A stretch of DNA of 64,000 bases from an uncultured virus (IMG/VR IMGVR_UViG_3300025109_000005) (IMGVR_UViG_3300025109_000005), one strand, 5' to 3'. Counted from the first letter of the stretch, positions 4,689 through 54,266 are shown. Notes: generated from the sequence alone by a model not told the origin. Program-made: numbers and translations.

Positions 4689-5441
4689 ATGGCATGCGGA
4701 ATCTGTAGAAAGCCCGGACACAACCGACGAAGCTGCGCGGCTGTTGCAGCTGTTGCGGCTGCGGAGACCTGGCCGTTGCTCACGGAGCACTCTCTAAACA
4801 AGCCGAAGCCGGTCGAGGTCAGTCCAGCGTCGGTAGCCTCTCAGCTCACGGACCTGACGGGCCAGCGCTTCACCTGCGAGGGCGCGCTGATGAAGTTACT
4901 GAGTCGAGAAATCGTACTCACGCTCGAGGACGAAGTGATGAGGCGGCTCGACGCCCAGGTCGCGGTCGTGGCCCAGGGTGCAGCTGCCAGGGAGTTCGGC
5001 ATCGAGGTGACCCGCGAGGTGACCGCTCGAGTCGCGCTGCTCAGGGGCCTGGACGTCATGGAAGCAGGCGCCGGGGTGTCGAATGGCAGACCTGACCAGG
5101 CGAACCAACCCGCCCAACAGCTTCACGAAGAAAAAGCTGAAGAGGATGCAGTGGTTGATCGTAACACGGATGGGACCATCAGGACCCCTCCGGGCTGGGA
5201 ACTGTGGAAGTCTGCCGTTCCGGAGGAGCAGATGTCTGTCGATGACTACTACTCCAGCAAGGGCTGGGGACGGTGGTGTGGTCAGGTGGGCAACGAGACC
5301 ATCGTGTTCTACTGGACCAACAAGGAGTCCCTGCAGGGCGTGACTCCGTACACGGAGTCGGATGAGACGGGCAAGACCATTATCGTGCAGCCGACTCCAT
5401 GGGGTGAGGGGCACATCGTTCCGGCGGGCTGGGCGAGTTGA
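4689..5441 (+). CDS. Hypothetical protein with N-terminal CCHC zinc knuckle
   Basis: MACGICRKPGHNRRSC matches CX2CX4HX4C; AAGGAG RBS before 4689. Confidence 0.7.
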   Translation: MACGICRKPGHNRRSCAAVAAVAAAETWPLLTEHSLNKPKPVEVSPASVASQLTDLTGQRFTCEGALMKLLSREIVLTLEDEVMRRLDAQVAVVAQGAAAREFGIEVTREVTARVALLRGLDVMEAGAGVSNGRPDQANQPAQQLHEEKAEEDAVVDRNTDGTIRTPPGWELWKSAVPEEQMSVDDYYSSKGWGRWCGQVGNETIVFYWTNKESLQGVTPYTESDETGKTIIVQPTPWGEGHIVPAGWAS

Positions 5442-6793
5442 TGCGCTTTGTCGAGCTGTTTGCCGGAGCAGGAGGGATGTCACTCGGACTGCAGGCTGCG
5501 GGGCACGAGCACCTGCTCGGCGTCGAGTGGGACAAGGACGCTCACACGACCTACGTGGGCGGAGGATTCGAGGGTGTTCGTGGAGACGTCAGGGACGTTG
5601 GGGTCGTTGACCGCATCGTCGCCGCGTGTGGAGGAGAGCCCCTGGACCTGTTGGCGGGCGGTCCTCCTTGTCAGGCGTTCTCGAATGCGGGGAAGCGGGG
5701 TGCGGCACACGACGACCGCAACGGCTGGCCGTGGTTCCTGAGTGTCCTGCTCAAGCTCAAGGGACAGGGACTCGGGCCCACCTGGTTCGTCTGTGAGAAC
5801 GTCAAGGGGATGCTCTCGCATCGCAAGAAGGCACACGGAGGCAAGTACACGGGCGTGGTCGCGGATGACGTGATGGCGTGCCCACGATGCTACTGGGACG
5901 AGGTCTTGCTGCCTGCGTTCAGAGACGTCTTCGAGTGGGTCGACTGGTGGGTCCTGAACGCAGCGGACTACGGGGTTCCTCAGCGGAGGCACCGAGTATT
6001 CCTCGTGGGTGGGCCCAGACGCATCGAGCCGCCGATACAGACGCACAGCCAACAGGCCCTGGTTCACGACAAGTGGGTGAGCAGGTCGTACTGGGAGCGC
6101 CTTGGCATCAATGCAGTGGGTGCGCCCTCCAAGGAAGAACGGCGCGTCTTGAAAAAGATGAACGGTGTGACACCACAACACGCACCGTGGAACACCATTC
6201 GACAGGCCCTCGGCCTGGAGCAGGTCGTCGGTGGCGGGAGGAATCCTCAGAGCCCGGAGCTGGCAGAGAAGCGAAACTTCAGAGACCTCACAGACGAGCC
6301 TTCTGTCACCATGGCGGCTCAACAGGTGGGCAATCGCGGTCCCTGGTTCTCTGCCATTCGACACCAGAGTCCGTCTGCAGGAACGATTCAACATCCTGTC
6401 GATGCGCTCTGCCCCACGGTCGGGGGGAAGGGTGTGCTCTATGCAGAGGCGGAAAAACAGGAAGGCACGCACAACCCCCACTACCACGCGCATCGACTCG
6501 AGATGCTGGACAAGCCGAGCGTAGCTGTCTGCGCCACGGAGGTGAAGGGTGCGCGCCACCAGAAGTGGACCCCCGATAAGTCTCCGATGCGGGCCAGTGA
6601 CCAGATCTTTCGCGCAACGGGACGGAGGCGACTGACTGTCGAGGAGTGTGCACTCTTACAGGACTTTCCACAGGACTGGGAGTTCAACGGGACGAAGGCT
6701 TCACGTTACATGCAGGTAGGAAACGCAGTCCCGTCCAGGCTTGCCCGAGCGGTCGGTCTGGCTATCGCCAAAGGCGACGTTGATGGGAAGTAG
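5441..6793 (+). CDS. DNA (cytosine-5)-methyltransferase
   Basis: Motifs I FAGAGG, IV GGPPCQAFS, VI ENVKG, VIII QRRHRVF, IX RRLTVEECALLQDFP, X QVGNAV. Confidence 0.95.
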   Translation: MRFVELFAGAGGMSLGLQAAGHEHLLGVEWDKDAHTTYVGGGFEGVRGDVRDVGVVDRIVAACGGEPLDLLAGGPPCQAFSNAGKRGAAHDDRNGWPWFLSVLLKLKGQGLGPTWFVCENVKGMLSHRKKAHGGKYTGVVADDVMACPRCYWDEVLLPAFRDVFEWVDWWVLNAADYGVPQRRHRVFLVGGPRRIEPPIQTHSQQALVHDKWVSRSYWERLGINAVGAPSKEERRVLKKMNGVTPQHAPWNTIRQALGLEQVVGGGRNPQSPELAEKRNFRDLTDEPSVTMAAQQVGNRGPWFSAIRHQSPSAGTIQHPVDALCPTVGGKGVLYAEAEKQEGTHNPHYHAHRLEMLDKPSVAVCATEVKGARHQKWTPDKSPMRASDQIFRATGRRRLTVEECALLQDFPQDWEFNGTKASRYMQVGNAVPSRLARAVGLAIAKGDVDGK

Positions 6794-6986
6794 TCCCGCC
6801 GAAGAGGCGCTGTCACTCGTGCTGCCTGCCTTGTTCTCTGCGGAGGCTCACGTGGTCAGACAGCAGAGCCACGGGAAGCACGAACAGGACCGTATCGACG
6901 CGGAAGAGTGGGTCGAGAAGTTTGGGGGTCTCATGCACCAGTTGAGAGGTTACGGCTTTAACGGAGAAGAAGATGCCCAGAGATGA
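6783..6986 (+). CDS. Hypothetical protein
   Basis: ATG overlapping the MTase 3' end; 67 aa. Confidence 0.5.
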   Translation: MGSSPAEEALSLVLPALFSAEAHVVRQQSHGKHEQDRIDAEEWVEKFGGLMHQLRGYGFNGEEDAQR

Positions 6987-7203
6987 TTTCCAGAGACTCT
7001 GTCCGAACGGTCACCCCGCGAACGGAGCTCCTTGCGCCCACTACAAGTGTGAGAGGCGCGCGACTGTACCCGCTCCCGCACCACGGGAGACGAAACCCAC
7101 TCCCCTCGAGCCGCACCCGCTCGACCTGCGCCTCGACAAGATCGAGGTCATCCACTGGGATGGCCCTCTACGAGATGGTCAGCCGCCCAGGGGCCACAAG
7201 TAG
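6973..7203 (+). CDS. Hypothetical protein
   Basis: GGAG RBS, overlapping start, Cys/His cluster. Confidence 0.45.
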   Translation: MPRDDFQRLCPNGHPANGAPCAHYKCERRATVPAPAPRETKPTPLEPHPLDLRLDKIEVIHWDGPLRDGQPPRGHK

Positions 7204-7793
7204 CACTCGGTCTCGGCGCATCCCTTGGCGGCTACACGCAGCAGACCCGCGACTCCGGCAGTCGTGAGGATGGACGAGTCGATGAACAGCGAGAGGTGCT
7301 CGACCTCACCGACGAGGTCGTCACTCTCATCGAGAGCGCGGAAGGCCATGTTGTCGAGGTGGAAGGTGAGAGTCTCACCCTCTGCCTTCAGACCCGTGAC
7401 CTCGGTGACTCCGACCTTGAAGTTGCTGTCCTCGACGACTGCGTTGGGCGGATCGGCGACGAAGCTGTCGGAACCCTCTCCCCACATCGCGAGGAGCATC
7501 GGAAGTGTCAGGTCGAACGCCTGGCGCTCCGGGCGGTCTGTGAACGCGAGAGCCGTGTTGAGGTCGTCTGCGTTGAACGAGAGCTCGTGCCTCGTGTCGT
7601 TGACCTTCGTGACGGTGCCTGCCTCGATGGCGACGACGAACAGCAGCTTCGCTGGGGTGTCTGGGCTCTGGGCGCTGAGACGGTCGGCGAAAGCACGGAC
7701 GGTCTCGGCCTTGGTGTTCGTCGCTTCCTCGGCATTACCCGAGCAGGAAATGAGAGCAGCGAGCGCTACACAGGAAAATAGTCTTTGAGTCAT
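7179..7793 (-). CDS. Putative lipoprotein
   Basis: Signal peptide with lipobox LIS-C; GGAGGA RBS; FTDRPER...SFVADPPNA domain resembling bacterial exported proteins. Confidence 0.75.
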   Translation of the reverse strand: MTQRLFSCVALAALISCSGNAEEATNTKAETVRAFADRLSAQSPDTPAKLLFVVAIEAGTVTKVNDTRHELSFNADDLNTALAFTDRPERQAFDLTLPMLLAMWGEGSDSFVADPPNAVVEDSNFKVGVTEVTGLKAEGETLTFHLDNMAFRALDESDDLVGEVEHLSLFIDSSILTTAGVAGLLRVAAKGCAETECYLWPLGG

Positions 7794-7843
7794 GGTTCCT
7801 CCTCGACAGGGGTAACCCGTTAAGGAATGACCATGGATGAAGA

Positions 7844-8227
7844 TCAGGCCTTCTTCCGCCCTCGAGTCGTCCTGGCGGTGCTCTTCTTCGTGGTGTTCGT
7901 CCTGGGCCTGGGCGTCGGGCTGGCCTTGATTTTCGCCTTCTCGGACTTGACGGCTGGTTTCGGACTCCTGGGCGCAGCGACGGGAGCGGCGACGGGAGCA
8001 GGGGCAGTGACGTCTCTGACCTGAGTGGCAGTTGTTCTCAGTGAGCGCAACATGTCCACCACAGCGGATACATCCTCGACGCCCCTCACCGTGAGGGTTC
8101 CGGCCTCCTGGCGACCGGTAGAAGTGGTCTCTACGCTGTAGTCGTCGAGACCGAGATTACGCATCGCCTGGTGCGCGAAGGCCTCGAGCGACTGCTCTCT
8201 GGTGAGCTGCATGGTGAAGTCGGACAT
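7844..8227 (-). CDS. Hypothetical protein with Lys/Arg/Thr-rich tail (possibly DNA-binding)
   Basis: ATG at 8227 after AAGGAG; basic low-complexity C-terminus. Confidence 0.65.
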   Translation of the reverse strand: MSDFTMQLTREQSLEAFAHQAMRNLGLDDYSVETTSTGRQEAGTLTVRGVEDVSAVVDMLRSLRTTATQVRDVTAPAPVAAPVAAPRSPKPAVKSEKAKIKASPTPRPRTNTTKKSTARTTRGRKKA

Positions 8228-8240
8228 GGTGTCTCCTTGA

Positions 8241-9167
8241 TTACGTGCCGAAGATGCCACCTTCGGCGTCCTGTGCGGAACGTCGGAGGGCACCGAGTAG
8301 GTCATCGATTCCACGGCTCTCGCCAGTGGAGGTTCCGCTGCTCTGGCCCGTACCCATGTTCATCAGGTCGACGCTCTTGGGAACAGCCTCTGGCTCTGGC
8401 GGTGTCTCGACCACGGGAGCGGGGTAGCCTCCACGGATCATCTTGAGCGCCTGCTCTCTCGAGGCGCCTGCCTGCATCCCTGCGATGAGGAACCAGAAGG
8501 CCTCTTCGTTCGCGATGATGTCGGGAGCGCTCTCTTGGAGCCACGACTGGAACTCGTCGATGGCGGTCTCGGTCTCTTTCTCTTCGACGGCACGGGCTTC
8601 GTCGGCTCGCTTCGCTTCGGCAGATTCGAACGCCTTGAGCTGAGTCTGCAACTCTTCGTGCTTGCCTATCTGCTCCTCGTACTTGCTCTTCCAGTTCGAG
8701 TCTGCCTGGGCACCCATCTCGTCGTACTGCTTCTTCAGCGCATCGAGAGCACCCTTGTGGGCCTGCTTGATGTCGTCGATCTCGCGCTGCTTGTCTGCGA
8801 GGGGGTCGGCATCTCCGTAGAGCCACTGACGAACGCGCTCTTCCTGGGCGGACAACTCCTTCTCCCGCGTAACCAGGCTCTGTCGCCGGGCCGCGTTCTC
8901 CTGGGAGGTCTTGGTGAAGCCGCGCTCGAAGTTCTTGTACTTGGACTCGATGCCCTTGAGTAGCGTCTCCCTGACGTCGTCTTTCAGACCCGAGAGCCAC
9001 TCGGCATTCTTCAGGTCGTTGACCTCACCGTTCCAGTCGAACGCTGGAGGCGGCTCTGCAGATTCGACTGGTTCAGCCGACTCAACGGGTTCTGCGCTCT
9101 CTACGGGGGCACTCTCTGCGGACTCCGGGGCTGAACCAGCCTCGGCTACTCCGTCTACTTCGCTCAT
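8241..9167 (-). CDS. Capsid scaffolding protein (putative)
   Basis: Acidic N-terminus with ESAEPV repeats, YKNFERGFTKTSQE motif of the scaffold-type YxxxxxxYTxKxQE kind, long coiled coil, Pro/Gly linker and short C-terminal helix; lies in the portal operon. Confidence 0.75.
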   Translation of the reverse strand: MSEVDGVAEAGSAPESAESAPVESAEPVESAEPVESAEPPPAFDWNGEVNDLKNAEWLSGLKDDVRETLLKGIESKYKNFERGFTKTSQENAARRQSLVTREKELSAQEERVRQWLYGDADPLADKQREIDDIKQAHKGALDALKKQYDEMGAQADSNWKSKYEEQIGKHEELQTQLKAFESAEAKRADEARAVEEKETETAIDEFQSWLQESAPDIIANEEAFWFLIAGMQAGASREQALKMIRGGYPAPVVETPPEPEAVPKSVDLMNMGTGQSSGTSTGESRGIDDLLGALRRSAQDAEGGIFGT

Positions 9168-9175
9168 GTCGTCTC

Positions 9176-9667
9176 CTACATGGGGGGCATTTCAGGGGGC
9201 ATACCTGCCGGCGGTCCTGCGGGCGCGCCTTCGGCGGGCGCCATCTCCAGGGCCATGGCGGCGTCTTCGGAGCTGATGTCTTCGATGGAACCAGCGATCT
9301 TCTCCAGCTCCATGCGAAGCTGCATGTCGATGAGAAGTGCCTCGGCGAGCTCTTCGGGGGACATACCCTCGGTACGTCCCAGCTGCTGGGCAGCATCGTA
9401 GAGCGCACGGGCCTTGGCTTCGTCGATCTCGAGGCGCTCTGCGAGCACGGACACGTCCGGTCCGACAGGCTCGTCGCCTTCATCCTCGACGACTTCCTCC
9501 TCGACAACCTCACCCTCGAGCGGAGCTTCGGCTTCAGCGCCCTCGGGCCCACCCTCGGGAGCACCTTCGGGCCCACCGATCTCGGCGAGGATACGGTCAA
9601 CCTCGTCCATCAGGGGCTTCATGTCCTTTTCGGGGACGATTTCCTTGGGGGGCGCTTCTTCGGGCAT
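9176..9667 (-). CDS. Acidic, Pro-rich hypothetical head-module protein
   Basis: 163-aa ORF directly upstream of the scaffold; GGAG RBS. Confidence 0.7.
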   Translation of the reverse strand: MPEEAPPKEIVPEKDMKPLMDEVDRILAEIGGPEGAPEGGPEGAEAEAPLEGEVVEEEVVEDEGDEPVGPDVSVLAERLEIDEAKARALYDAAQQLGRTEGMSPEELAEALLIDMQLRMELEKIAGSIEDISSEDAAMALEMAPAEGAPAGPPAGMPPEMPPM

Positions 9668-9669
9668 GA

Positions 9670-9891
9670 CTACTCCACCTGTTGGGTGAGTGCGTCCTCG
9701 TCTGCCAGTTCAAAAGCGACCGGAAGTCCGAGGCTGAGGAGGTTCTTGTTGGAAAGGTGTCTGCGTTCTCCGGTGGCACGGTCTTCGTATACCACCATAT
9801 CACGATAGGCCACTTCGCCCACCTTGCGTAGACTACGCGGATGACTATCTGCCAGGCTGTGGGCCTTGTCGAGGAGATCGGGGTTCATCAC
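9670..9891 (-). CDS. Hypothetical protein
   Basis: 73-aa ORF translationally coupled within the operon. Confidence 0.6.
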   Translation of the reverse strand: MMNPDLLDKAHSLADSHPRSLRKVGEVAYRDMVVYEDRATGERRHLSNKNLLSLGLPVAFELADEDALTQQVE

Positions 9892-10367
9892 TTGAGCGCC
9901 CCCACCAGCTGTGCGGCGGACTTCTGCGTGATCGTGTGGCCCGGTTCCTCGGCGCGCAGTCGCTGCTTGGTGTCCGAGATCTCCTTCGCCATCTTGTCGT
10001 TGAGGTTCAGAGACTGCTTGCTCTGCCAGGACCGGTGACGAATCTCGTCTACACGAGAGCTCTTCTCGGCCCGCGTCTCGGTCTCGAGTTCGACCCGGTG
10101 GTTCGGAAAGCGCTCCTTGATGGTGGAGACCGCCCTGTCGTACTGCTCACGGGTCTCGCACTTGCCGAGGATACCCATGTCTACCGGGACGAATGTGCCG
10201 TAGCCATCACCCTGGACCCCAGGGAACCGTCCATGCGCCCATGACACTATACGCATACCTCCGCACTCACAGGGGGGAGGCCCCTCTTCACGGTGGTAGA
10301 AAACGTCTGGGTCGATTGTACCACACTCAGTGCATTCCAGGCCGTTGGCGATGAAGCTCATGGTCAC
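9888..10367 (-). CDS. Zinc-ribbon (FmdB-like) protein
   Basis: CTEC...CECGG N-terminal ribbon; a common position between portal and scaffold. Confidence 0.6.
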   Translation of the reverse strand: MTMSFIANGLECTECGTIDPDVFYHREEGPPPCECGGMRIVSWAHGRFPGVQGDGYGTFVPVDMGILGKCETREQYDRAVSTIKERFPNHRVELETETRAEKSSRVDEIRHRSWQSKQSLNLNDKMAKEISDTKQRLRAEEPGHTITQKSAAQLVGALK

Positions 10368-11212
10368 TCTCTCGGTGCGTCGGGGTGATCGGTGATGTTG
10401 TAGGTCTCAGCGGTTTCTGGCTTTTCAAAGAAGTGACGAGTCTTGTCTTCACCCTTGACCGTATGTAGGGTCCACCCAGAGCCGAACCAGTTTGCTTGCT
10501 CGGAGGACTCGATAGTTCCGTACTTCTCGGGTTGACCGACGCGCAAGTTCAAGTCTGCGGTGGACGCCTCGAAGATGTCTTCCTCGGGCACGTTTTTATA
10601 GATGTGTTTTTTCTGGTAGTTCGCGTAGTCATCGAGCCGTCCCTGAAGCCACGCGTCAGTTCCGTCGTCGTGATCAGGGTCATATATCATCACTCCTGAC
10701 TTTCCTTGTATCCAAGAGGGGCCGGTCCAAGAGGGGCCGGACTTTATCAGCTCGAAATCGGCTTGCGTTCTGCGCTGGGCCATGCGTCGAATGTAGTCGT
10801 CCCAGGACTTGATCTCTCCTGGCTGCGACTGAGCCTGAGCCTGCGGGGGCCCCCCACGAATGGGGTAGCGTTGACCTTCGGGGGAAGTGAACTCTGCCTG
10901 GAGTTGAGGAACCCCCTGCTCATCGGGCTCACTTCCTATGTATGTGAGTTGATCCTCTGTGCCGGGAAACATGCTGCCTTGAGCAACCTTGACGGAACCA
11001 TCCGGGGTCGAGAACTCTGCCCAGGGCAGGGACTTGTCGGTTTCGGTGAGACTATGCCGCTGAATCGCGACGTTCTTGAGCCGAGGAGGTAGCTCAGCTG
11101 TGGCGCCCCAGTCTATGCTCGTGGGCTTTTTGGAGGGTGCGAGCCTCGCTGCCTGTGCGTCTTGTCCGTCGATGCGCCACTGGTTGAGTAGAGCGGTAGC
11201 TTCGTCTGCCAT
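10364..11212 (-). CDS. Hypothetical accessory protein (candidate virion cargo)
   Basis: 282-aa ORF; N-terminal LLNQWRIDGQDAQ helix. Confidence 0.7.
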   Translation of the reverse strand: MADEATALLNQWRIDGQDAQAARLAPSKKPTSIDWGATAELPPRLKNVAIQRHSLTETDKSLPWAEFSTPDGSVKVAQGSMFPGTEDQLTYIGSEPDEQGVPQLQAEFTSPEGQRYPIRGGPPQAQAQSQPGEIKSWDDYIRRMAQRRTQADFELIKSGPSWTGPSWIQGKSGVMIYDPDHDDGTDAWLQGRLDDYANYQKKHIYKNVPEEDIFEASTADLNLRVGQPEKYGTIESSEQANWFGSGWTLHTVKGEDKTRHFFEKPETAETYNITDHPDAPRE

Positions 11213-11214
11213 GA

Positions 11215-14200
11215 CTATCCATACCTCGAGGAGTCATCCAGGGCTCCGGCGAGGGAGGCTTGAATGTCAGGATTCTTGGGGTCGAACATGCCCTTGTTGA
11301 GATAGCTCTTGATCTGGGTGGGCTCGAAAGCGATGTAGGAGTCCCCACCACCCTCAATGATATTGCGGTAGACGACACCGTCGTAGCCTTGAGCTTTTAG
11401 CGCTGCTTTGGCTTGTGCACCAAGTTCTGCGATGATGCGCTCACGTAAATCTGATTCTGTGTAATCTTCTGCGAGACTAAGAGCTTGGTTGTTTACATCT
11501 TCGCGGAACTCAATGTCAGTATCGTATTTTTTCCAGGCAGCGTCTATCGTCTCATCTGTGTAGTCAAACTGACGCCAAAAAGTATCTTCTATTAAAGCGT
11601 CATCGTTGATTTTTTGCCTTTTCGCTAACTGGAGTAACCCTTCCTCGGTCATTCTAGCCGGGTTTTTAATAGATAAGTAAACGGGGTAGACTCGTCCTGG
11701 GGCGTCTGTCTCTGATCGAAGTCGCTGCCACTTGAGACCACCGATTCCGGCAAATGTGTCTGCTACATGGGGGCTCGTCGCAAAGTGAGCCCCCATGTAG
11801 GCGTTTGGATCACCCGAGCCAGAAAGGATTGTCGCCTCGTCTACGTCTATCCAGGGAGGCCCCTCTACGGAGAACTCGCTGAAATCGACTTTTGCAGTTG
11901 TGCCATGGTAGACGACCAACGGCTTTCCAGCATCGTCTACCACTGCCGACTCACCGAACCACTTCTGGAAGTAGGGAGAGTTTGTCCCCATCTCCTGCCA
12001 CAGCCGCTTGGCCTCGGCAGCCTCGCCGAGCATCTGCTTGGCCGCAGTCTGGGCAGCCTGGTCGCCTTCCTGGGCAGCCTTGAAGGTCTCGGTGACCTTG
12101 GGCGCGATTGTGGTTGGGGGTGAGGGGAGGTCGCGCACCCCTTCGGCGGCTGATCGAGCGCTCACTTTCGGGCCGAGCTTTGTTCGGACTGCCGCTTTGT
12201 GCGCTCCGGCAGAGACACCCAGCTCGTGTGTCGCCTTCATCACCTCGGCAAGAGCGTTGCGGTCCTTCAAGCTTACGCCGAAGACATCGGCAACAGCTGC
12301 GAGGAGCTCGTTCCAGACTGTCGTGATTTTGCCGCCCGTGGTGGGGATCTCGATCTCCTTCAGTATCGCCTGGAACTCTGGATTGGAGAACGCTTCTGCG
12401 ACGAACTCCTCAGCGTCCGTGAATCCGTATTCGCCGAGAGCGTGGGGTGAACCCTTCCAGCGAGGATACTGCACGGGACCGACGCCGTACTTCTCGAGCG
12501 GCACCCCCTTAGGAGACATACGAGTCGAGGTTATCCGGGTACTTAGTATATCTTGTGTCTGCTTATAGATTTCTTCGATTCTGTCGGCAGCAGCGAGAGC
12601 GCGTCGACCTTCTGCGGTGCTCTTCAAAGAGCGCAAGATCTCGGGTATACCTGTTCGTCCATCATAGTTGGCTTCTCCTCGGTTCATTTTGGCGGCGTGG
12701 AGGACCCGAGCGGTGCCCCCATGTAGCAGCTCATGGATAACTGTAGAGAAGCCCTTCAGGTGACGTGTTTGGTTTATGACGACGACGTCGTGATTAACGC
12801 TATACCAAGAGGTGCCCCGTGCTAGTTTCCTCTTCTTCTCGTCCGCCAGGTGTGCCGCCACGCTACGAGGCAGGTCGTCGAGGGTGCCGAACACAGATTC
12901 ACGATACTTGGCTGGCGCATCAACGACTCCTTCTACGTCGTTGACGACATGGACGGGTATATCGTCTACGCCGGGGAAGCCTTTGAGATACTTCGCGACG
13001 GCGACTTCTGGGTCTCCGCGCCCATACATGCCTACATAGACCAGCTTTTGGGGTTGTTTGATTATTTCGTCGAGTAGGGTATTCGAGTCGGTCACCATGT
13101 AGCGGGGGCGGGGATCTTGGTCCCGGTACGGCGTGGGCGATTCATCTATATACTCCGTCTTCGTTTTGACTGTCTGGGTGATCCAATCATCGGCTTCGTG
13201 GTACGGCTCCCAACGCAGGGAAGCCTCCCACGGATCGCGGGGCTCGTACTTAGGATCGCGGAGCACATCGGGCGGTGAGGCACGAACCGCCGCCTCGGCT
13301 ACGGGTGCGGCAGGCGCTGCTTCTGCGCTTCTTTTTAACTCACGGTATTCATTTTTAAGCATCGCTCGCTTGAATCCGTAAACTCCTCGACTCGGCGGAA
13401 CTCCGGTCCGAGAACTGGGGAGAAGCGGCGTACCATCTACTGAGATACCTGTGCCGAATGTGACGAATCTGCTTCCGTCTTGCCTCTTGACCATAAGCTG
13501 TGTTGTTGGTTTGGCTCCTTTTGCGGGAGTCTTGTCGTATGGGGGAAATCGGTCTACTGGACCAAGGACTTGAACTTGTTCGTCGCCGAATGCTGCCTCG
13601 ACTGGATATTCGCGGGTGTGCATTTTATCGAGGGCCGCGTCTGCTTGTTGCTTGTATTCGGCTTTGGTCGCCTCATCGAGATCTTCCCAGTAAGTGACGC
13701 CCGGTTCGCGTGGTTTTGCTCTGGCTTCGAGGAACTCATCCCAAGAAGGTAGCTTCTTGGCTGCACGCGCGGCAGGCGCCACCTCGGCTGCTTCCCTCGC
13801 AGCTTTGACGATGGGCCCGACAGGCGGTCCGACAACTGCAGCCATGCCGAGACCTGACAGGGCAGCCATGGCTACGTCGCCTTCCTCGATGGCTTTGTTG
13901 AAGTAGTCTGCGTCGATGGCGTATCCGAGGGACGGGCTTGCGGCTCCCCCGAGTACTTCAGTCCACGCCTTTGCGCTGGGTCCGATCTCGAACTCTCCTT
14001 CGAGACCATAGCGCTTGGGCCACTCCCCGGGCGGGCGTTCGTCGAGGGGCGTTGCCTCTACCGATTCACCTGTGGTGGCTCGTCGATAGTGCTCTGGGCT
14101 GGCGTAGACACCCTCGGGGCCGGGCGCGTCTGCGACGGAGGGCTCCTCGGAGATCTCCTTCTTGCGCGACTCCATGACGGCTCTCCAGGCGTCTCGCTGC

Positions 14201-14577
14201 TTCTGCGTCATGTCCGGGGGCTCTTTCACCGCACCGCTGGGGCCCGGCAGGTCCACTGCTGTCGGAGGCGTGACGCGCTGCACCAGATTGCCGTACTTGT
14301 CGTAGACCTCACCCTCCTGGCGCGGCCTCTTGTAGCGCCGAAGGTCTGAACGTATCTGGTCGGCTTGTTCGCTGGTCAGCCCGGGGGCACTGTCCCACTC
14401 CGGCCTTTGAGCCAGAGTTTCGGCTGCGGCTTCGCGGCGAGCATCTGCGAACGCCTTCTCCTCTGTTTTCTTCGCAGGTACGAATGGCTTGACCTCTGCG
14501 TCTTCCTCTTTCGCCGCATCTTCGCGCAGCTTGCGAAGTCGCAGGTCGAGGTCAGGGGTCAGGCCATAGGTGCTCAC
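11215..14577 (-). CDS. Polyvalent protein: PT-TG-like segment, zincin metallopeptidase, C-terminal ADP-ribosyltransferase (ART-PolyVal-like)
   Basis: HELLH at 12721-12735 plus EEFVAEAFSNPEF; C-terminal FQKWFGESAVVD..GKPLVVYHGT...VYPVYLSIKNP...GYDGVVY...FEPTQIKS...FDPKNPDI. Confidence 0.8.
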   Translation of the reverse strand: MSTYGLTPDLDLRLRKLREDAAKEEDAEVKPFVPAKKTEEKAFADARREAAAETLAQRPEWDSAPGLTSEQADQIRSDLRRYKRPRQEGEVYDKYGNLVQRVTPPTAVDLPGPSGAVKEPPDMTQKQRDAWRAVMESRKKEISEEPSVADAPGPEGVYASPEHYRRATTGESVEATPLDERPPGEWPKRYGLEGEFEIGPSAKAWTEVLGGAASPSLGYAIDADYFNKAIEEGDVAMAALSGLGMAAVVGPPVGPIVKAAREAAEVAPAARAAKKLPSWDEFLEARAKPREPGVTYWEDLDEATKAEYKQQADAALDKMHTREYPVEAAFGDEQVQVLGPVDRFPPYDKTPAKGAKPTTQLMVKRQDGSRFVTFGTGISVDGTPLLPSSRTGVPPSRGVYGFKRAMLKNEYRELKRSAEAAPAAPVAEAAVRASPPDVLRDPKYEPRDPWEASLRWEPYHEADDWITQTVKTKTEYIDESPTPYRDQDPRPRYMVTDSNTLLDEIIKQPQKLVYVGMYGRGDPEVAVAKYLKGFPGVDDIPVHVVNDVEGVVDAPAKYRESVFGTLDDLPRSVAAHLADEKKRKLARGTSWYSVNHDVVVINQTRHLKGFSTVIHELLHGGTARVLHAAKMNRGEANYDGRTGIPEILRSLKSTAEGRRALAAADRIEEIYKQTQDILSTRITSTRMSPKGVPLEKYGVGPVQYPRWKGSPHALGEYGFTDAEEFVAEAFSNPEFQAILKEIEIPTTGGKITTVWNELLAAVADVFGVSLKDRNALAEVMKATHELGVSAGAHKAAVRTKLGPKVSARSAAEGVRDLPSPPTTIAPKVTETFKAAQEGDQAAQTAAKQMLGEAAEAKRLWQEMGTNSPYFQKWFGESAVVDDAGKPLVVYHGTTAKVDFSEFSVEGPPWIDVDEATILSGSGDPNAYMGAHFATSPHVADTFAGIGGLKWQRLRSETDAPGRVYPVYLSIKNPARMTEEGLLQLAKRQKINDDALIEDTFWRQFDYTDETIDAAWKKYDTDIEFREDVNNQALSLAEDYTESDLRERIIAELGAQAKAALKAQGYDGVVYRNIIEGGGDSYIAFEPTQIKSYLNKGMFDPKNPDIQASLAGALDDSSRYG

Positions 14578-14903
14578 TTGGCGCCTCTGTAGCGAGGAGT
14601 GATTTCTCCAGGCCTCACATCCATCGGGGAGACAGCTTCGCAGGGCTGATCCGTCTCGTACTCGCCCTCGGGCTGAAAGTGCCTGTCGTAGTCCTTCAGG
14701 TAGAAGCGTCGTCGGTTGAAGCTTCGAGAGGCCCCTCCGGCTTCTCGGTGGGAGAGCACCGTGTAACCCACGGTCACTCCAGGGAGACGGCTACGGGGAG
14801 GCTTTGTTTTCGTCGGAGCGAGCCATGAACTCTCACGCACGTACTCCATGTTCTCGATAGGCATGAGCCAGATCACTTCGGATTCTCTGGGGTTGACGTT
14901 CAT
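14574..14903 (-). CDS. DUF6009-like protein
   Basis: IWL..IE..EYVRES...VGY...F.RRRF.L..YDR..P.G.Y....PCEAV.P pattern; start reassigned to ATG at 14903 after GGAG. Confidence 0.6.
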   Translation of the reverse strand: MNVNPRESEVIWLMPIENMEYVRESSWLAPTKTKPPRSRLPGVTVGYTVLSHREAGGASRSFNRRRFYLKDYDRHFQPEGEYETDQPCEAVSPMDVRPGEITPRYRGAK

Positions 14904-14917
14904 TACTGTCTCCGGGG

Positions 14918-15343
14918 TTAGGTGACTGTCCGGCCTGCCCAGCTGAAGCAGACTCGCATGGATGCACACTTGAAGTTCCAGGCCTGGCAGTAGCCGAGCT
15001 CTCCGCCCTCGATGGCTCGTTCGGGGTCACCCTCTCCACCGAGTCCGGTCTCGATGCACTGGAGCATCTGCGGAGTCTGGATGAAGAAGGTGCAGCCCTC
15101 GCAGCGCATCGACATCACGTTGTCGACGGTGTCGTTGAACTTCTGGGCATAGATCTCCCAGAACGGCAGGTTCTCACCTACGTCGTCGAGCTGTGGATTG
15201 ACGGGACCGTACTTGGCTTCGTCGATGGCTTTCTGACGATGCTTCATGTTCAGGACGATGTCCTGCGTCACCCGAGGGCACCTGTCCGTCTCACGGGCGT
15301 CCCGCTTCGCTCGGTCGATGATCTCGTGTGATGTTCTCGCCAC
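14918..15343 (-). CDS. Cys-rich conserved phage protein, possibly Fe-S (HiPIP-like Cys spacing)
   Basis: CP..TQD..LN..HRQKAI..YGP.NP; RCEGC...GYC...KC...VCxSW. Confidence 0.7.
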   Translation of the reverse strand: MARTSHEIIDRAKRDARETDRCPRVTQDIVLNMKHRQKAIDEAKYGPVNPQLDDVGENLPFWEIYAQKFNDTVDNVMSMRCEGCTFFIQTPQMLQCIETGLGGEGDPERAIEGGELGYCQAWNFKCASMRVCFSWAGRTVT

Positions 15344-16009
15344 CTATCCCTCGTATTCTTTGATCATGGCTTGGATTTTCTCCCAGCCAGCTTTTTGGTC
15401 GAGAGGGGGAGCGAGCTCTGGCCTGAATACCATTGTGGTGCGCAGGATTTCGGGGTCGATTCCTCGGTCTACGGCTTGCGCGTAGTCGATGCTGCCGTCG
15501 AGGAAATCAGCCAGGTCTTGCCCCTGCTTCTGCTCCGACAGGATCTTCTCGGCCATTTTCATGGCGTCCTTGGATCGGTCCCCTGCGCGGATGGCCTTGA
15601 ACACTGCCTTGGCGCTATCACCGAAGACGGGGAGGAACCCGACTCCAGCCATCACCATTCCGAGAGTGTCGTTGCTGCGGATTGCCGTGGCGAGGTCCTT
15701 GACGTCGATGGCGACTCCCGCAGGTGTGGCTCCCGCAGCAATCTCGGTAGCAACCTTCGCAGGACCGAGTTCCACCGGTCCCGTGGTTCCATGTCTCGTC
15801 ACTCGCGTCTTGAGAGGCTCGGCTGCCTGCGCTGCCTGGCTGCTTGCGACAGAGGCCTCCCAGCGCCCCTGCTGCTCTGGGGTCATCTCTGGACGCTTCA
15901 ACGTTGAGCCGCCGAGACGTATCGCCTCTTCGTCCTGGGCCGACCGACGCATCTGGTTGATCTTGTTGTCGGCTTCGTTCTTCAGGTTCAGGTATTCATC
16001 GGTGGGCAT
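15344..16009 (-). CDS. Accessory protein with a pre-toxin TG-like hydrophobic hairpin
   Basis: AAGATPAGVAIDVKDL...MAGVGFLPVFGDSAK; N-terminal part homologous to 11215-14577. Confidence 0.7.
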   Translation of the reverse strand: MPTDEYLNLKNEADNKINQMRRSAQDEEAIRLGGSTLKRPEMTPEQQGRWEASVASSQAAQAAEPLKTRVTRHGTTGPVELGPAKVATEIAAGATPAGVAIDVKDLATAIRSNDTLGMVMAGVGFLPVFGDSAKAVFKAIRAGDRSKDAMKMAEKILSEQKQGQDLADFLDGSIDYAQAVDRGIDPEILRTTMVFRPELAPPLDQKAGWEKIQAMIKEYEG

Positions 16010-16017
16010 GGTGTCCT

Positions 16018-17751
16018 CTATTTGGCGGGTGCGCCTTCACGGATGGGTGCCCCTCCGCCTGCGGCGAGAGCTTCTTCGGGTGATTCTTCTCCACCACCGC
16101 CTGCCAACATCGCCAGCAGTTCTGGCGGGATGCCTTCTGCACCACCTTCACCGTTTGCGGCGACAGCAGCACCACCGAGGGCTTGCTGCTGGGCTGCTTC
16201 GGCCTGGGCAGCGGCAGTGGCTGCGACGTCTTCTTCGGGCAGTAGGATGTTGGCAGGTAGTCCGAGTCCGGTGATGAGTTCTTCGGTGAACCGTCTCACA
16301 TCGACGTTCGGATTCTGCATCAGGAAGGGCAGCAGGTTTATCATGGTCTCGGCGAGAACACTGGGGTTTTGGCGGATGGGGTTGTAGCTGACCATGGAGA
16401 AGCTGACGTCCACGTCGTGGATGTCGGGCAGGTTGACGGTCGCCCAGCGACGGTTGCCCGCGACCCGGACCATCTTCTCTTCCTTCATGTACTTGCGGCA
16501 CAGGTAGAAGGCCTTCTCACCCACGCTCTCGAGCGCAGCGTTGACATGACCCTCGCGGGTCGCCAACCTGGTCCGCATCTGGGCATCGATGATTGCCATC
16601 TCGGTAGCCGTCCTGGCACCTGTGACCTGACCTCGTGCAGCCTCGGCCAGGGCGCTGATGAAGGCGGCATCGTCTTCCTGTCGAGCCGTGAACTCCTTGA
16701 CGCCCACAGGGGTCTGGGGCTGAGGCATCTCGTAGAACAGGGTCGCCAATGTGCGCAGGGCTTCGCTGTTCTCGGGGCTGATTCCGATGAAGCTACCGCT
16801 GGATGCCTCGACGGCCTTGTTGAGGTCCTCTTCGCTGATGCGCCCAGAGTCGTAGAGGATCCTCGGAATCATCAGGTAGACGATCTGCTTCATGTGTGTG
16901 AGCAGGTCGTTCACGGTCTCCTGTTGACTGAGGACGAGCTGGACCTCGCTCAATCCCAGACAGTCCACGCCCGACTGGTTCAGTGAGAACATGGAGTAGG
17001 GGATGTAGTCGATCTCGTCCTCGAGCACGATGGTGTCGGCCTGTTGGACGTAGTGCTGCACGATGTTGTGCTCGCGGTCGTAGTACTCCCAGACGGTGAC
17101 CCACTGGAACGCATCACGGACGGAGTTGGCGTTCTTCTGGTTGCTGCCGCCCAGCATCCACGAGGGATAGCGGTCGGGCTGGATGTCTCCCATCCGGTCG
17201 ATCTTGTACATGCCTGACTCGACCCGCTTCTCGAACTCCGACCAGGGAAGCACGGTGGCCTCGAGCCAGTAACGAATGTCGTCCACGTCCCGGACGGTCA
17301 GGTCGAAGAAGATGGCGGACGGGTCGACGACCTTGATCAGGGGCCGGTCGAGGGTCTGGCTCCAGCCTGTCTTGAAGATGCCTCGCTTGCACAGCACCGC
17401 ATCGATGAGCGCCGTGGCGGCACGGCTCCGCATCCGGTTGGTATCGAAGATGTACTCCAGTAGACCGTTGACTGCGGGGAGCGCCTGCTGGCTACGCGGG
17501 TTGCGCGGGGTCGCCGCGACCTGGGGGTTCGGCCCGAGCAGTGCACTGATGGCTGTGTCCGCGATGGCGTAGATGAGGTTCTTGCTGCAGAGCATGCTTC
17601 GCAGCTGGCTCGTGTCGACGAGTGCGCCCTCCGAGGCCTGGTTCCAGAACTCGCCACGGTAGTAGCGACGAGCCTTGTCGAAGGACTGCTTCTCGTATTG
17701 GTCGTAGTACCGGCGATGGCGGTCGATGAGGCTCGATAGTTTCGGAGTCAA
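16018..17751 (-). CDS. Portal protein
   Basis: 577 aa downstream of terL; RRYYRG, KNLIYAIAD...NPQV and RTATE motifs; Q/A/G-rich C-terminal tail. Confidence 0.85.
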   Translation of the reverse strand: MTPKLSSLIDRHRRYYDQYEKQSFDKARRYYRGEFWNQASEGALVDTSQLRSMLCSKNLIYAIADTAISALLGPNPQVAATPRNPRSQQALPAVNGLLEYIFDTNRMRSRAATALIDAVLCKRGIFKTGWSQTLDRPLIKVVDPSAIFFDLTVRDVDDIRYWLEATVLPWSEFEKRVESGMYKIDRMGDIQPDRYPSWMLGGSNQKNANSVRDAFQWVTVWEYYDREHNIVQHYVQQADTIVLEDEIDYIPYSMFSLNQSGVDCLGLSEVQLVLSQQETVNDLLTHMKQIVYLMIPRILYDSGRISEEDLNKAVEASSGSFIGISPENSEALRTLATLFYEMPQPQTPVGVKEFTARQEDDAAFISALAEAARGQVTGARTATEMAIIDAQMRTRLATREGHVNAALESVGEKAFYLCRKYMKEEKMVRVAGNRRWATVNLPDIHDVDVSFSMVSYNPIRQNPSVLAETMINLLPFLMQNPNVDVRRFTEELITGLGLPANILLPEEDVAATAAAQAEAAQQQALGGAAVAANGEGGAEGIPPELLAMLAGGGGEESPEEALAAGGGAPIREGAPAK

Positions 17752-17754
17752 GGT

Positions 17755-18123
17755 CTACTCCTCGCGAGGCGCTTTCGCGCCACGAATGTGAGCAATCTTC
17801 GGAGCTGTCCCCATCGCGGAAGCCCGCAGCCCTTTAACATCGACCCCAGCCGCGACGTCACGAGGCGGGAGGCCCCATATGTGGGCTACAACATCGTCAA
17901 GTAGTGTCGCTGCGGGAAGCCCGTAGCGCTCTGCCAAGCCTTTTTCGTTGGCGAGACGCCGCACATGGTCCATGTAGGCTTGAACCTTATCTGGGTTCCA
18001 ATCAGGCGGCGGAACTTCAGGAAGCTTCTCTGCAGACGCAGGCGAAGGCGCTTGCGTTCTAGCCTCGGTTTTCATGTTGTGGATGATCTCGTCAGGTGAC
18101 TGCGTGTATTTGGGGGACATCAC
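17755..18123 (-). CDS. Hypothetical accessory protein
   Basis: ORF between terL and portal; N-terminal EIIHNMKTEART helix. Confidence 0.65.
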   Translation of the reverse strand: MMSPKYTQSPDEIIHNMKTEARTQAPSPASAEKLPEVPPPDWNPDKVQAYMDHVRRLANEKGLAERYGLPAATLLDDVVAHIWGLPPRDVAAGVDVKGLRASAMGTAPKIAHIRGAKAPREE

Positions 18124-19778
18124 TACATCCAGTTGCGGGGAGGGGGCTTGAAGGGGTTCTTGCGCTGATTGCGGTTGTGGCGATTGTACCGGTCGAGGTC
18201 CGCGATTGTAAGCTGACCGGGATGCCGCTCATTAACCTCTTCTAGGTTATCTGGCGTGAAGTGGCGACGGGACAGGATGTCGGCAGCCATGACAGCGGTT
18301 CTTGCGCGGTCGAAGTGGTGGGTCTCGCCGTCGAGGCCCTTCACTCTCTTCTTGCGCGAACCATCGTAGTTCAGCAGCTGGTGGAGCAGTCCCCTGGACC
18401 GGAGCTCGATGTCTTCCTGTCGGAGCATCCGAACCAGGCGAGCCTCGGCTTCCTGAATCCGCTTGTCGGTGGCGTACCAACCAGGATGGTTGCGGTTGGT
18501 CCACAGCAGCTTCTTGCAGCCGCCGTCCTTGAGCAGGGCGATACAGGCCGTGGCGTTGGACTCCACGGCGAGCAGGGCACCGTTGTACCGGGCCTGGACC
18601 TGCAGGAGTCGTCGGGAGAACCGGTCCGGTGGTTCTCTGTCCTCCCAGAACGCAACCTCTCTCCGCGTGATGGCGTTCCAGACAGTCAACGCACTCTTGT
18701 CGCCGTCTCCACCGAACCCCGCAGGGTCTGCAGTGATGACGTACTTGTCCCTGGGCTCGGGGGCGTCGATCTCTCTGCAGCCGGACAGGGCTACTGGAGG
18801 ATCATTGACCGCACGTGCCAGGAGAGGCTTCAGTATCTCTATAGGCATAACCGGTGCGAAGGCGCCGAGCCAGCCATCATAGGGGTCTGAGGGGTACTTA
18901 CTCGAGAAGAGTCTGGAGTCCCCTGCGAACTCGGTCTCGAGGGCGAGTCGGCGGAACGCCAGGTTGTCGAGAACCATGCCCGGGTGCCTCGACATGTATG
19001 TCTTTTCTTCTTCGGTGGGGACGAAACCGGCAGGGCTGACTCGACAGCTGGGGTCGTGCCACCACTCGAGGAACAGAGAACTGAAGCGACCTCGCCCCTC
19101 GAGAGAAGACTGCCACATCTGCTCATGGTGACTGCCAGATCGTCCCGGCGTGGACTCCAAGATGACGCGGGCGTTGGGCCGTTTGTTCAATGTCGGGAAG
19201 ATGTTGATCGCGGCTTTACGCTGCCACTGAGCTTCACCGAACTCGGTGATGACGAGGCGGTCGATGGAACGACCGATGGCAGGACTGCGTCCACCTGCAG
19301 TCAGGATCTTGATGGCGCCTCCGTGACAGAAGTGAATCTGGGTCGCACCAGCCTTGCGCCCATGAGCCAGTGGCATCTTCACGTCTTCGGGGAGTCGGTG
19401 GTAGGCAAACAGGATGCGCTCGAAGATGTCTTCAGCGGTGTCCTGGCGCTCTGCAATGAGTAGGCCCTTGATGCCGTTGAGGTACATACAGTCACGCAGC
19501 AGGAGCATGACACTGACGGTTGTGATCTTGGCCTGCCTGAACTTGTTGACCATGACCCAACGGTGGCTGCCGATAGAGTTGAGGAACTGCATCTGCGTGT
19601 TTGTCGGGTTCATGTAGCCCATGGACTCATCTTCTCGGATGATCTGACACATGCTCACGAAAGCAGACGGCGTGGAGAACATGGCTTGTATCTTGCCCAT
19701 GTGCAGGCCGGGCGCTTCAGCGAAGTCGGCACCACCAGACACACTGGTGCCTGTCACAGGCTGAATCAAGCTGCTCAT
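18123..19778 (-). CDS. terL: Terminase large subunit
   Basis: Walker A-type KFRQAKITT, Walker B LVITE, coupling motif ESTP, RNase H-like nuclease residues ADPAG/DKSA/VESN/HFD. Confidence 0.9.
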   Translation of the reverse strand: MSSLIQPVTGTSVSGGADFAEAPGLHMGKIQAMFSTPSAFVSMCQIIREDESMGYMNPTNTQMQFLNSIGSHRWVMVNKFRQAKITTVSVMLLLRDCMYLNGIKGLLIAERQDTAEDIFERILFAYHRLPEDVKMPLAHGRKAGATQIHFCHGGAIKILTAGGRSPAIGRSIDRLVITEFGEAQWQRKAAINIFPTLNKRPNARVILESTPGRSGSHHEQMWQSSLEGRGRFSSLFLEWWHDPSCRVSPAGFVPTEEEKTYMSRHPGMVLDNLAFRRLALETEFAGDSRLFSSKYPSDPYDGWLGAFAPVMPIEILKPLLARAVNDPPVALSGCREIDAPEPRDKYVITADPAGFGGDGDKSALTVWNAITRREVAFWEDREPPDRFSRRLLQVQARYNGALLAVESNATACIALLKDGGCKKLLWTNRNHPGWYATDKRIQEAEARLVRMLRQEDIELRSRGLLHQLLNYDGSRKKRVKGLDGETHHFDRARTAVMAADILSRRHFTPDNLEEVNERHPGQLTIADLDRYNRHNRNQRKNPFKPPPRNWM

Positions 19779-20602: not shown

Positions 20603-21652
20603 ATGTCTATCACGACTGAAGTTCTCAACACTACGTTTGCGGACCTGAGGGGGCCCCTGGTCAACTCGTTCGTTCGCAGCAATGAGCTCTTCGACGCATT
20701 GATGTCCAAGGCCCGTATGCCCATGGAAGGCGGCTCATATATCGAGCGGACTTTCTCGGGTGGTGCTCCTGCACGCGGTGTCGGCATCTACGTCGGCGAC
20801 GAACTCCTCAACATGACGCGACGTCAGCAGATCAAGAAGTATCAGGTCGAGCCACATCGCCTGGTGGTTGCTGTCAACATCCCCAAGAAGGAGTTGATGT
20901 TCAACAGCGGCAAGCTGGCTATCGTGCGCCTCATCGAGGAGTACCCAAAGACTACAATGGACGCCGCTCAGGCCGACATCAACGCCTACATCCTGACAGG
21001 TTCCAGTCGCGGTCTGGTCTTCCAGACTGCCGAGCTCCGAGGCCTCCTGACCCTCAACGGTCAGATCTCCTCGGGTATCGGTACTGGGGTCACCAACGGA
21101 CTTCTGGACTTCTCGACTCCAGCTACGCAGACGGACACCGTCCAGAACGTGGCCAAGTCCAGCAGCTATTTCCACTTCAACAACTACGGTGCGATCACGG
21201 CCTTTGCCACTGACGGCATGGCTACGCTCCGGAAGACGTACCGCAAGTGCGCGCACTACGCGGGTGGAATCGGCAAGGGTCCTGACCTGTGCATCATGGA
21301 TGACGACACCTACACCAACTTCGAGGAGAGCCGTCTCAACCTCGTGCGGGTCAAGGTCGTCGAGGACAAGACCGAGAAGTCCAACATGCTTGGTCTCGAT
21401 CTCGGTGTCGCCAAGGTGTACAGTTCCATCGACCTCGACCGGAGTCTGTTCACGACTCCTGCCGACGTGGGTGTGACCTACATCCTGAACACCGACTTCA
21501 TCGAGTTCCCGCTCCACGAGGCTCCCCAGATTGGAGAGTTCAAGGAGAGGGTCGGAGATCAGGACGTTGTGACCTCGATCTTTTCGATGCAGGGTAACCT
21601 TATCAGCACGAAGCTTCCTGCCCAGGGAGTGGTTGCTGGTGGCTCGGCTTAG
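20603..21652 (+). CDS. Major capsid protein
   Basis: 349 aa, strongly biased codons, LNTTF..L...LVNS..SN.LF..L...GG..I N-terminus of HK97-fold MCPs; own promoter and leader. Confidence 0.85.
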   Translation: MSITTEVLNTTFADLRGPLVNSFVRSNELFDALMSKARMPMEGGSYIERTFSGGAPARGVGIYVGDELLNMTRRQQIKKYQVEPHRLVVAVNIPKKELMFNSGKLAIVRLIEEYPKTTMDAAQADINAYILTGSSRGLVFQTAELRGLLTLNGQISSGIGTGVTNGLLDFSTPATQTDTVQNVAKSSSYFHFNNYGAITAFATDGMATLRKTYRKCAHYAGGIGKGPDLCIMDDDTYTNFEESRLNLVRVKVVEDKTEKSNMLGLDLGVAKVYSSIDLDRSLFTTPADVGVTYILNTDFIEFPLHEAPQIGEFKERVGDQDVVTSIFSMQGNLISTKLPAQGVVAGGSA

Positions 21653-54203: not shown

Positions 54204-54210
54204 TTGTCAG

Positions 54211-54247
54211 GGGGTGGCCTCGACACCGGCACGTCGAGGTCATCCCC
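54211..54247 (+). terminator. Stem-loop after the SSB-like gene
   Basis: GGGGTGGCCTCGAC / GTCGAGGTCATCCCC. Confidence 0.6.
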
Positions 54248-54266
54248 ACCCTTTCTCCGGTGCAGT

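Follow-up and report, generated by a model that had tools for sequence, protein, structure and literature searches.

The 64,000-nucleotide stretch of DNA examined here (the window; uncultured virus IMGVR_UViG_3300025109_000005 of IMG/VR) derives from a tailed phage, and it raises the question of why the terminal helix of one likely scaffolding protein recurs at the N-termini of unrelated proteins encoded beside it. The genes concerned form a single minus-strand operon, which runs from the large terminase gene (terL) to the gene for the 308-amino-acid (aa) putative scaffold; the coat protein gene diverges from terL (Table 1). The helix motif is shared by scaffold tails and a set of proteins termed carriers, it lies at the N-termini of the latter, it is enriched in the head operon, the bodies behind it are unrelated, and it behaves as a module. 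The best explanation, to which we give an even chance, is that the scaffold-tail helix at these N-termini is an address label (tag) by which proteins would be loaded into the procapsid.

The helix motif within the window

A reading made from the sequence alone (the sequence-only reading) had proposed that the C-terminal helix of the putative scaffold recurs at the N-termini of accessory proteins of the packaging operon, and had quoted a peptide for each copy. All of these peptides are present in the translations of the open reading frames (ORFs) to which they were ascribed, but the scaffold extends eight residues beyond the end quoted for it. For the profile tests, training was on one class of sequence and the other class was then read. 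An 18-column position-specific scoring matrix (PSSM) was derived from 46 distinct scaffold C-termini and scanned over 19,790 sequence windows in 66 ORFs. The N-termini of the 221-aa, 122-aa, and Cys-rich 141-aa proteins rank second (15.0 bits), third (12.0 bits), and seventh (8.0 bits), which bears out the proposed motif in these three. The 282-aa protein is borderline: it matches the pattern of the sequence-only reading, a circular test, but its PSSM score is 1.6 bits (rank 38; sixth of the 66 N-termini). Both copies proposed for the 1120-aa polyvalent protein (rank 210 at -4.1 bits and rank 31 at 2.4 bits) and the weak copy proposed for the 73-aa protein (rank 1683, -12.1 bits) belong to the background. 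When the first 45 residues of each ORF are taken as a zone, the best three of the 66 zones all fall within the terL-scaffold operon (hypergeometric p = 0.0038). Judged by sequence, therefore, the 221-aa, 122-aa, and Cys-rich 141-aa proteins are the clear carriers of the window, and the 282-aa protein may carry the tag as well.

A pairwise BLOSUM62 scan of the scaffold 17-mer of the window against the other ORFs reveals a single exceptional match, the N-terminus of the 221-aa protein, with a score of 40; the null, taken as the maximum over 1000 shuffles, has a mean of 26.3, a 99th percentile of 36, and a top value of 42. The 282-aa protein scores 20 and belongs to the 18 sequence windows that reach this value, where 5.9 are expected. 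Natural helices thus outscore shuffled ones, and this favors the explanation that the helices have no common function. Short amphipathic helices rich in Glu, Lys, Arg, Met, and Ala abound, N-termini have a biased composition, and the helix of the Cys-rich protein would be part of its fold, so that chance and descent within families would account for the pattern; the claimed carriers which lie at background point in the same direction. The consensus of the sequence-only reading, written as a regular expression, matches exactly four sites in the window, namely the scaffold C-terminus and the N-termini of the 282-aa, Cys-rich, and 221-aa proteins (0.16 expected from shuffles; 0 of 2000 reached four). 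This test is circular because the pattern came from these very sequences. In the core common to the scaffold and the 221-aa protein, 18 of 27 nucleotides are identical and the differences are synonymous; the likeness is therefore at the protein level, and a recent duplication of DNA is ruled out as its origin.

Carrier families in related phages

Searches with the portal and the 308-aa protein gave no match in 50,697 deposited phage genomes, and cultured relatives were not found. The portal served to fetch 28 loci of relatives and the scaffold alignment a further 70, making 98 related loci in addition to the window. Here the profiles could be read in both directions. A profile of the Cys-rich N-terminus (the 18 residues before the invariant Cys-Pro, 10 distinct sequences) finds scaffold C-termini as its best non-self matches (12.7, 11.9, 11.9, and 11.7 bits), the top decoy from 20 shuffled copies of 471 proteins reaching 7.5 and the top reversed sequence 5.3. 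Conversely, a profile of eight scaffold tails lifts two Cys-rich N-termini (13.5 and 9.2), residues 51-60 of a 208-aa family (8.2), and the N-terminus of the 221-aa protein (7.7) above its decoy top of 5.6. With a 46-tail hidden Markov model (HMM) these values rise to as much as 20.0 for Cys-rich N-termini, 12.6 for the 208-aa family, and 10.9 for the 221-aa protein; the highest decoys (10 × 1440) scored 11.4, 9.1, 7.9, and 7.3, so that one of the 14,400 exceeds the 221-aa tag. Reciprocal matches above all or nearly all decoys argue against a resemblance without common function.

The 1440 distinct ORF products of the 98 loci and the window, scaffolds left out, were clustered into 640 families, and a family was counted as a carrier if the median score of its N-termini (first 40 residues) with a 13-column PSSM was at least 7. 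Between terL and the scaffold gene, 9 of the 79 encoded families are carriers, versus five of 559 elsewhere (Fisher p = 5e-6). Shuffled N-termini gave 0 of 79, operon residues 41-80 gave 2 of 49, and residues 81-120 gave 0 of 31. The motif starts mostly at residues 3-13, and this register is consistent between unrelated families; several of the five carriers outside the operon also have it at position 1-10, including a lytic transglycosylase. The Cys-rich family has the highest N-terminal median of all families (26.5). The family of the 122-aa protein has a median of only 4.3 and a best member at 7.7.

The carriers form at least eight groups, among which BLAST detects no likeness beyond the tag, in agreement with the proposal that the bodies behind the motif are mostly unrelated. 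These groups include the Cys-rich family (38 loci), the 221-aa, 122-aa, and 495-aa proteins, a mosaic group of proteins of 208-314 aa, a number of small proteins, a 189-aa product of locus L037, and two large proteins of 666 and 965 aa, which are encoded downstream on the other strand. Of 12 carriers taken from the relatives, 11 had no match in Pfam or PHROGs. Locus L037 encodes, as its 189-aa carrier, an SLT lytic transglycosylase (PF01464 at 1.7e-21), whose PHROG matches include phrog_342, "internal virion protein with endolysin domain", and also "lytic tail protein". Among T7-like and other phages with short tails, enzymes that cut peptidoglycan are typically carried in the virion and ejected. 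As a sequence pattern, then, the scaffold helix does recur at the N-termini of unrelated head-operon proteins, and more strongly in the relatives than in the window, although some of the carriers originally listed fall away.

Four proteins of 122, 495, 85, and 155 aa, encoded by the window (17755-18123), L015 (13890-15377), L065 (7969-8226, minus strand), and L063 (13400-13867, minus strand), respectively, begin with one variant of the tag, in which Pro is followed by [QD][EQ][IM]I and by a run of basic residues that closes with Gln-Ala. The four have no BLAST likeness beyond this shared opening.

Could the carriers be modulators of assembly? They might compete for the scaffold site and thereby govern shell size, timing, or scaffold release, in the manner of SaPI1 CpmB, or they might be auxiliary scaffolds or chaperones that leave before DNA entry. 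CpmB is described as binding, by the same C-terminal helix as the 80alpha scaffold, the same coat site, which lies beside the N-arm (PMC5644958), and the Cys-rich protein, being a conserved core gene of the head operon rather than a variable accessory, would suit such a role. Yet an SLT transglycosylase is found among the carriers, and fast-diverging, cassette-like carriers lie beside a polyvalent protein with ADP-ribosyltransferase (ART) and peptidase features, both typical of injected effectors; moreover, at least eight unrelated bodies are too many for assembly regulators. We consider this explanation very unlikely.

Modularity of the tag

The sequence-only reading had left it to be seen whether homologs of the cargo elsewhere lack the helix, and one clear instance was found. 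The 495-aa carrier of L015 and a 480-aa protein of the sister clade (clade B) are 47% identical from residues 68 and 42, respectively, to their ends, whereas their N-termini cannot be aligned and only the clade-A (L015) member has the motif. A second comparison involves locus L004, which is almost the same phage as that of the window (portal 99.65% and scaffold 99% identical). The 221-aa gene is absent from L004, and identity with the window drops to 61% for the polyvalent homolog and to 52% for the 282-aa homolog. In the L004 homolog of the 282-aa protein the first 50 residues are 100% identical, and beyond them identity falls to 12-34%; in the polyvalent protein about 400 N-terminal residues (1-400) are mostly 90-98% identical, versus 14-68% for the enzyme part. 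The tags of the 221-aa, 122-aa, 282-aa, and 495-aa proteins are followed by a Pro-, Gly-, or Ala-rich stretch. The layout seen in these alignments pairs a constant address with a variable payload behind it. The comparison of the window and L004 places a hypervariable cassette region in the head operon, within an otherwise near-identical backbone.

The exchange of the tag on a conserved body, the consistent register, and the counts of carrier families against shuffled N-termini and against genes elsewhere are difficult to reconcile with helices that lack a common function, and we regard that explanation as quite unlikely. The diversity of the carriers, the transglycosylase among them, and the modularity of the tag fit an address for capsid loading.

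The putative scaffolding protein

The 308-aa protein possesses an acidic N-terminus, two very long helices, a linker rich first in Pro and Glu and then in Gly, Ser, and Thr, and a C-terminal helix. In the AlphaFold2 (AF2) model (mean predicted local distance difference test score, pLDDT, of 68.6) helices span residues 63-117, 122-213, and 287-303, and residues 1-40 and 258-284 are disordered. Orthologs were found in 76 related loci, and the gene is the final conserved one of the terL-portal operon. In the window it and the coat gene lie on opposite strands, the latter beyond terL. In clade B, the genes for the Cys-rich protein and an acidic protein are followed by a third gene, which occupies the place of the putative scaffold gene and sits directly upstream of the coat gene; the product of this analogous gene has no detectable homology to the 308-aa protein (hhalign probability 0.2). 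Composition, predicted shape, and gene order suggest that the 308-aa protein is likely the scaffold. Among relatives, 46 distinct tails have the consensus LMN[ML]G, a flexible stretch, and then [FY]x[ED][IM]Mxx[ML][RK][RK]xAQ, in which the basic pair is kept throughout.

Proposed mechanism and docking partner

From these data we infer that the 308-aa protein is the scaffold, that its helix binds coat protein, and that the carriers are packaged. The terminal amphipathic helix of the scaffold, some 15 residues with a basic pair, would be the docking element for the assembling shell, and the docking site would most likely be the conserved N-terminal arm of the coat protein. In this clade of uncultured phages, unrelated proteins would begin with a copy of that helix, as a rule followed by a flexible linker. 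The tagged proteins would take some of the scaffold sites during procapsid assembly and become enclosed, later to be ejected with the DNA or to act inside the head.

To gain some insight into the docking site, coat protein (with an alignment of 11 sequences) was folded as a complex with residues 1-40 of the 221-aa protein, the sole pair folded. The interface score ipSAE (interaction prediction score from aligned errors) was 0.42 (runs 0.42, 0.49, and 0.37), and the best of three controls gave 0.00; contacts agreed between runs to at least 87%, and the pLDDT of the partner was at least 67. The mark set for ipSAE is reached by 116 of 157 solved complexes and by 2 of 215 mismatched pairs. As only 18 of the 157 solved complexes, together with both mismatches, lie at 0.60 or below, the coat-tag fold was rated as weak support. 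Among relatives, whose coat proteins have an overall identity of 72-75%, the first 60 or so residues of this protein hardly vary, a pattern that is suggestive of a conserved docking site. The docking on coat protein predicted here is the least secure step of the scheme.

The helix could instead be an assembly address that docks elsewhere, on the scaffold itself through helix-helix co-assembly or on the portal, the carriers riding in on the scaffold core, a route that has been proposed for the ejection proteins of P22 and the core proteins of T4. The P22 ejection proteins are described as needing scaffold, and not portal, for their incorporation, with their N-terminal parts binding or entering (PMC8402733). 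For T4, a 2023 review calls the localization of core proteins "mysterious" and gives the docking partner of the capsid-targeting sequence (CTS) as unknown (PMC9958956). The modest fold, which came without an interface, and the lack of co-variation between tag and scaffold tail would agree with such docking. A copy of the scaffold tail, however, would most simply bind the partner of that tail, which is reported to be coat protein in 80alpha and P22; the near-invariant coat N-terminus fits a conserved site, and the fold controls at 0.00 contrast with 0.42. Docking away from the coat protein appears unlikely to us.

Several results weigh against the address label, whatever its docking partner. 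Besides the weak coat-tag complex, three of the peptides originally listed (both copies in the 1120-aa protein and that in the 73-aa protein) fail the scaffold-trained test. The role of the 308-aa protein has no homology support, as it matches no Pfam and no PHROG family and its best PDB profile hits are unrelated (E ≥ 0.21). The carrier count at operon N-termini differs from that at residues 41-80 with p = 0.13 only. The remaining points concern the Cys-rich family. Its helix runs without a linker into the invariant Cys22 and may thus be part of the fold of the protein, not an added tag. Clade-B Cys-rich proteins retain a related N-terminal helix, shifted by one residue as judged by eye, beside a scaffold that is non-homologous and ends differently; such persistence without a matching scaffold tail is what helices of no common function would show. 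The clade-A motif is absent from clade B (best 3.2 bits versus a decoy top of 6.2; 372 ORFs, 21 loci), and the extension of the motif to that clade was rejected, its scaffold being non-homologous. Finally, scaffold and Cys-rich sequences do not co-vary: in 20 distinct pairs, own pairs have a mean of 27.3 and permuted pairs 29.4 (p = 0.97). This absence would also suit a pattern without function, but a conserved docking partner would account for it. That the helix was appended to diverse cargo is, with its abutment on Cys22 and its persistence in clade B, not clear for the Cys-rich family.

For the clade as a whole, which is marine and has P22/SU10-type portals, we put forward tentatively, at somewhat less than an even chance, that the helix forms a portable address code. 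Any protein that starts with it would be co-assembled into the procapsid by taking a scaffold site, and its copy number would be set by competition with the scaffold.

The Cys-rich family and clade B

Seven cysteines are invariant in the Cys-rich family, members of which come from two or more phage clades whose genome layouts differ. The protein has no Pfam family, an Atlas search led only to viral hypothetical clusters, and the AF2 model (pLDDT 47) is unusable for a judgment of fold or for a search. A member of the family is annotated in one source as "Fe-S cluster biogenesis protein NfuA". The spacing of the cysteines may resemble that of a high-potential iron-sulfur protein. In the clade-B locus L119, the N-termini of the Cys-rich protein (9995-10414) and of a 480-aa protein (6981-8423) look alike by eye, with the pattern F-D-x-x-L-x-x-A-M-x-G. 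This likeness may point to a separate tag in clade B, one which does not match its scaffold tail.

Organization of the locus

Coordinates are collected in Table 1. Altogether 34 proteins of the window were scanned against Pfam and 17 against PHROGs, out of the total of 66 ORFs. PHROGs identifies the terminase, portal, and coat protein, and the Pfam matches of the portal are to the SU10 and P22 types. The accessory proteins have no Pfam family at E ≤ 0.01, DUF6009 included, with the sole exception of ART-PolyVal. NCBIfam gave no match above cut-off for 10 proteins of the operon and its neighborhood, and no protease family was matched among the proteins scanned with Pfam or PHROGs.

Table 1. Positions of the head genes and of the helix motifs in the window, counted from its first nucleotide.
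Feature	Position	Strand	Remarks
Large terminase	18123-19778	-	phrog_2 at 2.3e-22
122-aa protein	17755-18123	-	between terL and portal
Tag of 122-aa protein, residues 8-25	18049..18102	-	PSSM 12.0 bits; Pro-rich linker follows
Portal	16018-17751	-	PF23899 at 2.9e-14, PF16510 at 6.7e-13
221-aa protein	15344-16009	-
Tag of 221-aa protein, residues 11-28	15926..15979	-	closest copy of scaffold helix in the window
Cys-rich 141-aa protein	14918-15343	-
N-terminal helix of Cys-rich protein, residues 3-20	15284..15337	-	PSSM rank 7
1120-aa polyvalent protein	11215-14577	-	ART-PolyVal and HExxH
282-aa protein	10364-11212	-
Borderline tag of 282-aa protein, residues 3-20	11153..11206	-	PSSM 1.6
159-aa Cys-containing protein	9888-10367	-
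73-aa conserved protein	9670-9891	-
163-aa acidic protein	9176-9667	-
308-aa putative scaffolding protein	8241-9167	-
C-terminal helix motif of putative scaffold, residues 285-302	8262..8315	-	46 distinct C-termini aligned; self score 29.1 bits
156-aa ORF	7844-8314	-	directly after scaffold gene
Major capsid (coat) protein	20603-21652	+	phrog_9953 at 1.1e-18

The 1120-aa protein, encoded between the portal and scaffold genes, carries PF18760 (ART-PolyVal) at residues 881-1094 (1.3e-19; 71.8 bits versus a cut-off of 31.2), and it also matches phrog_37402 and phrog_21376. By the motif HELLH in its translation it is a candidate peptidase. By analogy with its family it is probably cargo, though it has no demonstrable copy of the tag. 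One segment of it, residues 189-278, is similar to residues 72-158 in the 221-aa protein, at 34% identity (E 3e-8).

The 156-aa ORF overlaps the scaffold stop codon; translation probably begins with Met 29, after that stop. At this probable start lies a weak motif, the fourth best N-terminal zone of the 66 (6.4 bits), which scores only 1.4 with the 13-column matrix. The C-terminus is extremely basic and rich in Pro, Thr, Lys, and Arg, and the product may be a DNA-binding internal protein.

In relatives, three small, very basic, conserved proteins are encoded in the portal-scaffold interval (31, 22, and 17 loci; for example, L005 11788-12520); they are without the tag and are absent from the window. 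Elsewhere the window encodes a single ORF of 3346 aa (34004-44044) amid tail and virion genes, with no Pfam match, as well as a Mom-family protein (50848-52524; 7.4e-09), a protein in which a uracil-DNA-glycosylase-superfamily domain is joined to a family A DNA polymerase (54204-56972), and a C5 cytosine methylase (5438-6793).

Relation to known systems

N-terminal capsid-targeting signals are established in T4 IPII and IPIII and in P1 DarB, in the last of which the signal comprises 30 residues (PMC9024508). The cargo of these phages includes injected enzymes, namely the ART Alt of T4 and the Dar proteins of P1 (PMC9024508, PMC9958956, PMC5512222). The carriers described here resemble them in that otherwise unrelated proteins open with a short peptide. 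In T4 the CTS comprises some 10 aa and is described as clipped by the prohead protease gp21, whereas the scanned window proteins include no protease family, and the head resembles a P22/SU10-portal, scaffold-type system. The Dar N-termini of P1 are described as having no common consensus (PMC9024508); by comparison, the carriers here have one consensus, which equals the C-terminal helix of the scaffold itself.

The situation in 80alpha and SaPI1 is closer in that a second protein shares the sequence of the terminal amphipathic helix of the scaffold, as the reciprocal profiles indicate for the present phages. CpmB, however, is the protein of a phage parasite, carries the helix at its C-terminus, and is described as an alternative scaffold that alters capsid size (PMC5644958). 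Here the proteins are the phage's own, the helix is N-terminal, the bodies are many and unrelated, and the role proposed is cargo loading. The consensus contains no RIIK-like hook and no sequence likeness to the 80alpha and CpmB helices.

A C-terminal basic helical element of the P22 scaffold gp8 is said to bind coat, and cargo fused to that element is reportedly enclosed in shells. The AF2 model of the 308-aa protein is, like gp8, elongated and helical, and in it a flexible linker leads to a terminal helical element that contains basic residues. It differs in having no detectable homology and in ending with a single helix after a long disordered linker, not with a helix-turn-helix. Unlike the engineered scaffold fusions of P22, the fusions here would be natural and comprise the helix only.

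Phage polyvalent proteins with ART and peptidase domains have been predicted to be packaged in the head and injected (PMC5512222). The 1120-aa protein, with its ART-PolyVal domain and HExxH motif among head genes, is like those described by Iyer, Burroughs, and Aravind in 2017; many of the latter are described as associating with the head through MuF or portal-type domains, whereas Pfam finds none in the 1120-aa protein, which has the conserved N-terminal module of some 400 aa instead. In the papers listed by searches of the openly accessible literature we found N-terminal signals, the CpmB mimic, and engineered fusions, and no description of phage cargo with the scaffold tail at its N-terminus.

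Significance

Even for model phages, the way in which internal and ejected proteins enter the head is still not settled; for P22, the source gives dependence on the scaffold only (PMC8402733). A tag equal to the docking helix of the scaffold names a specific site and a simple mechanism of competition. If the address label is real, it would be the natural counterpart of encapsulation by engineered P22 scaffold fusions, and it would explain in concrete terms the recruitment of ejection and effector proteins to heads that lack a protease. It would also provide a minimal natural tag for the loading of proteins into HK97-fold shells. The injected "first-strike" proteins of uncultured phages would then become listable from sequence, and in the phages considered here they would include the ART/peptidase protein, the SLT enzyme, and the seven-cysteine protein.

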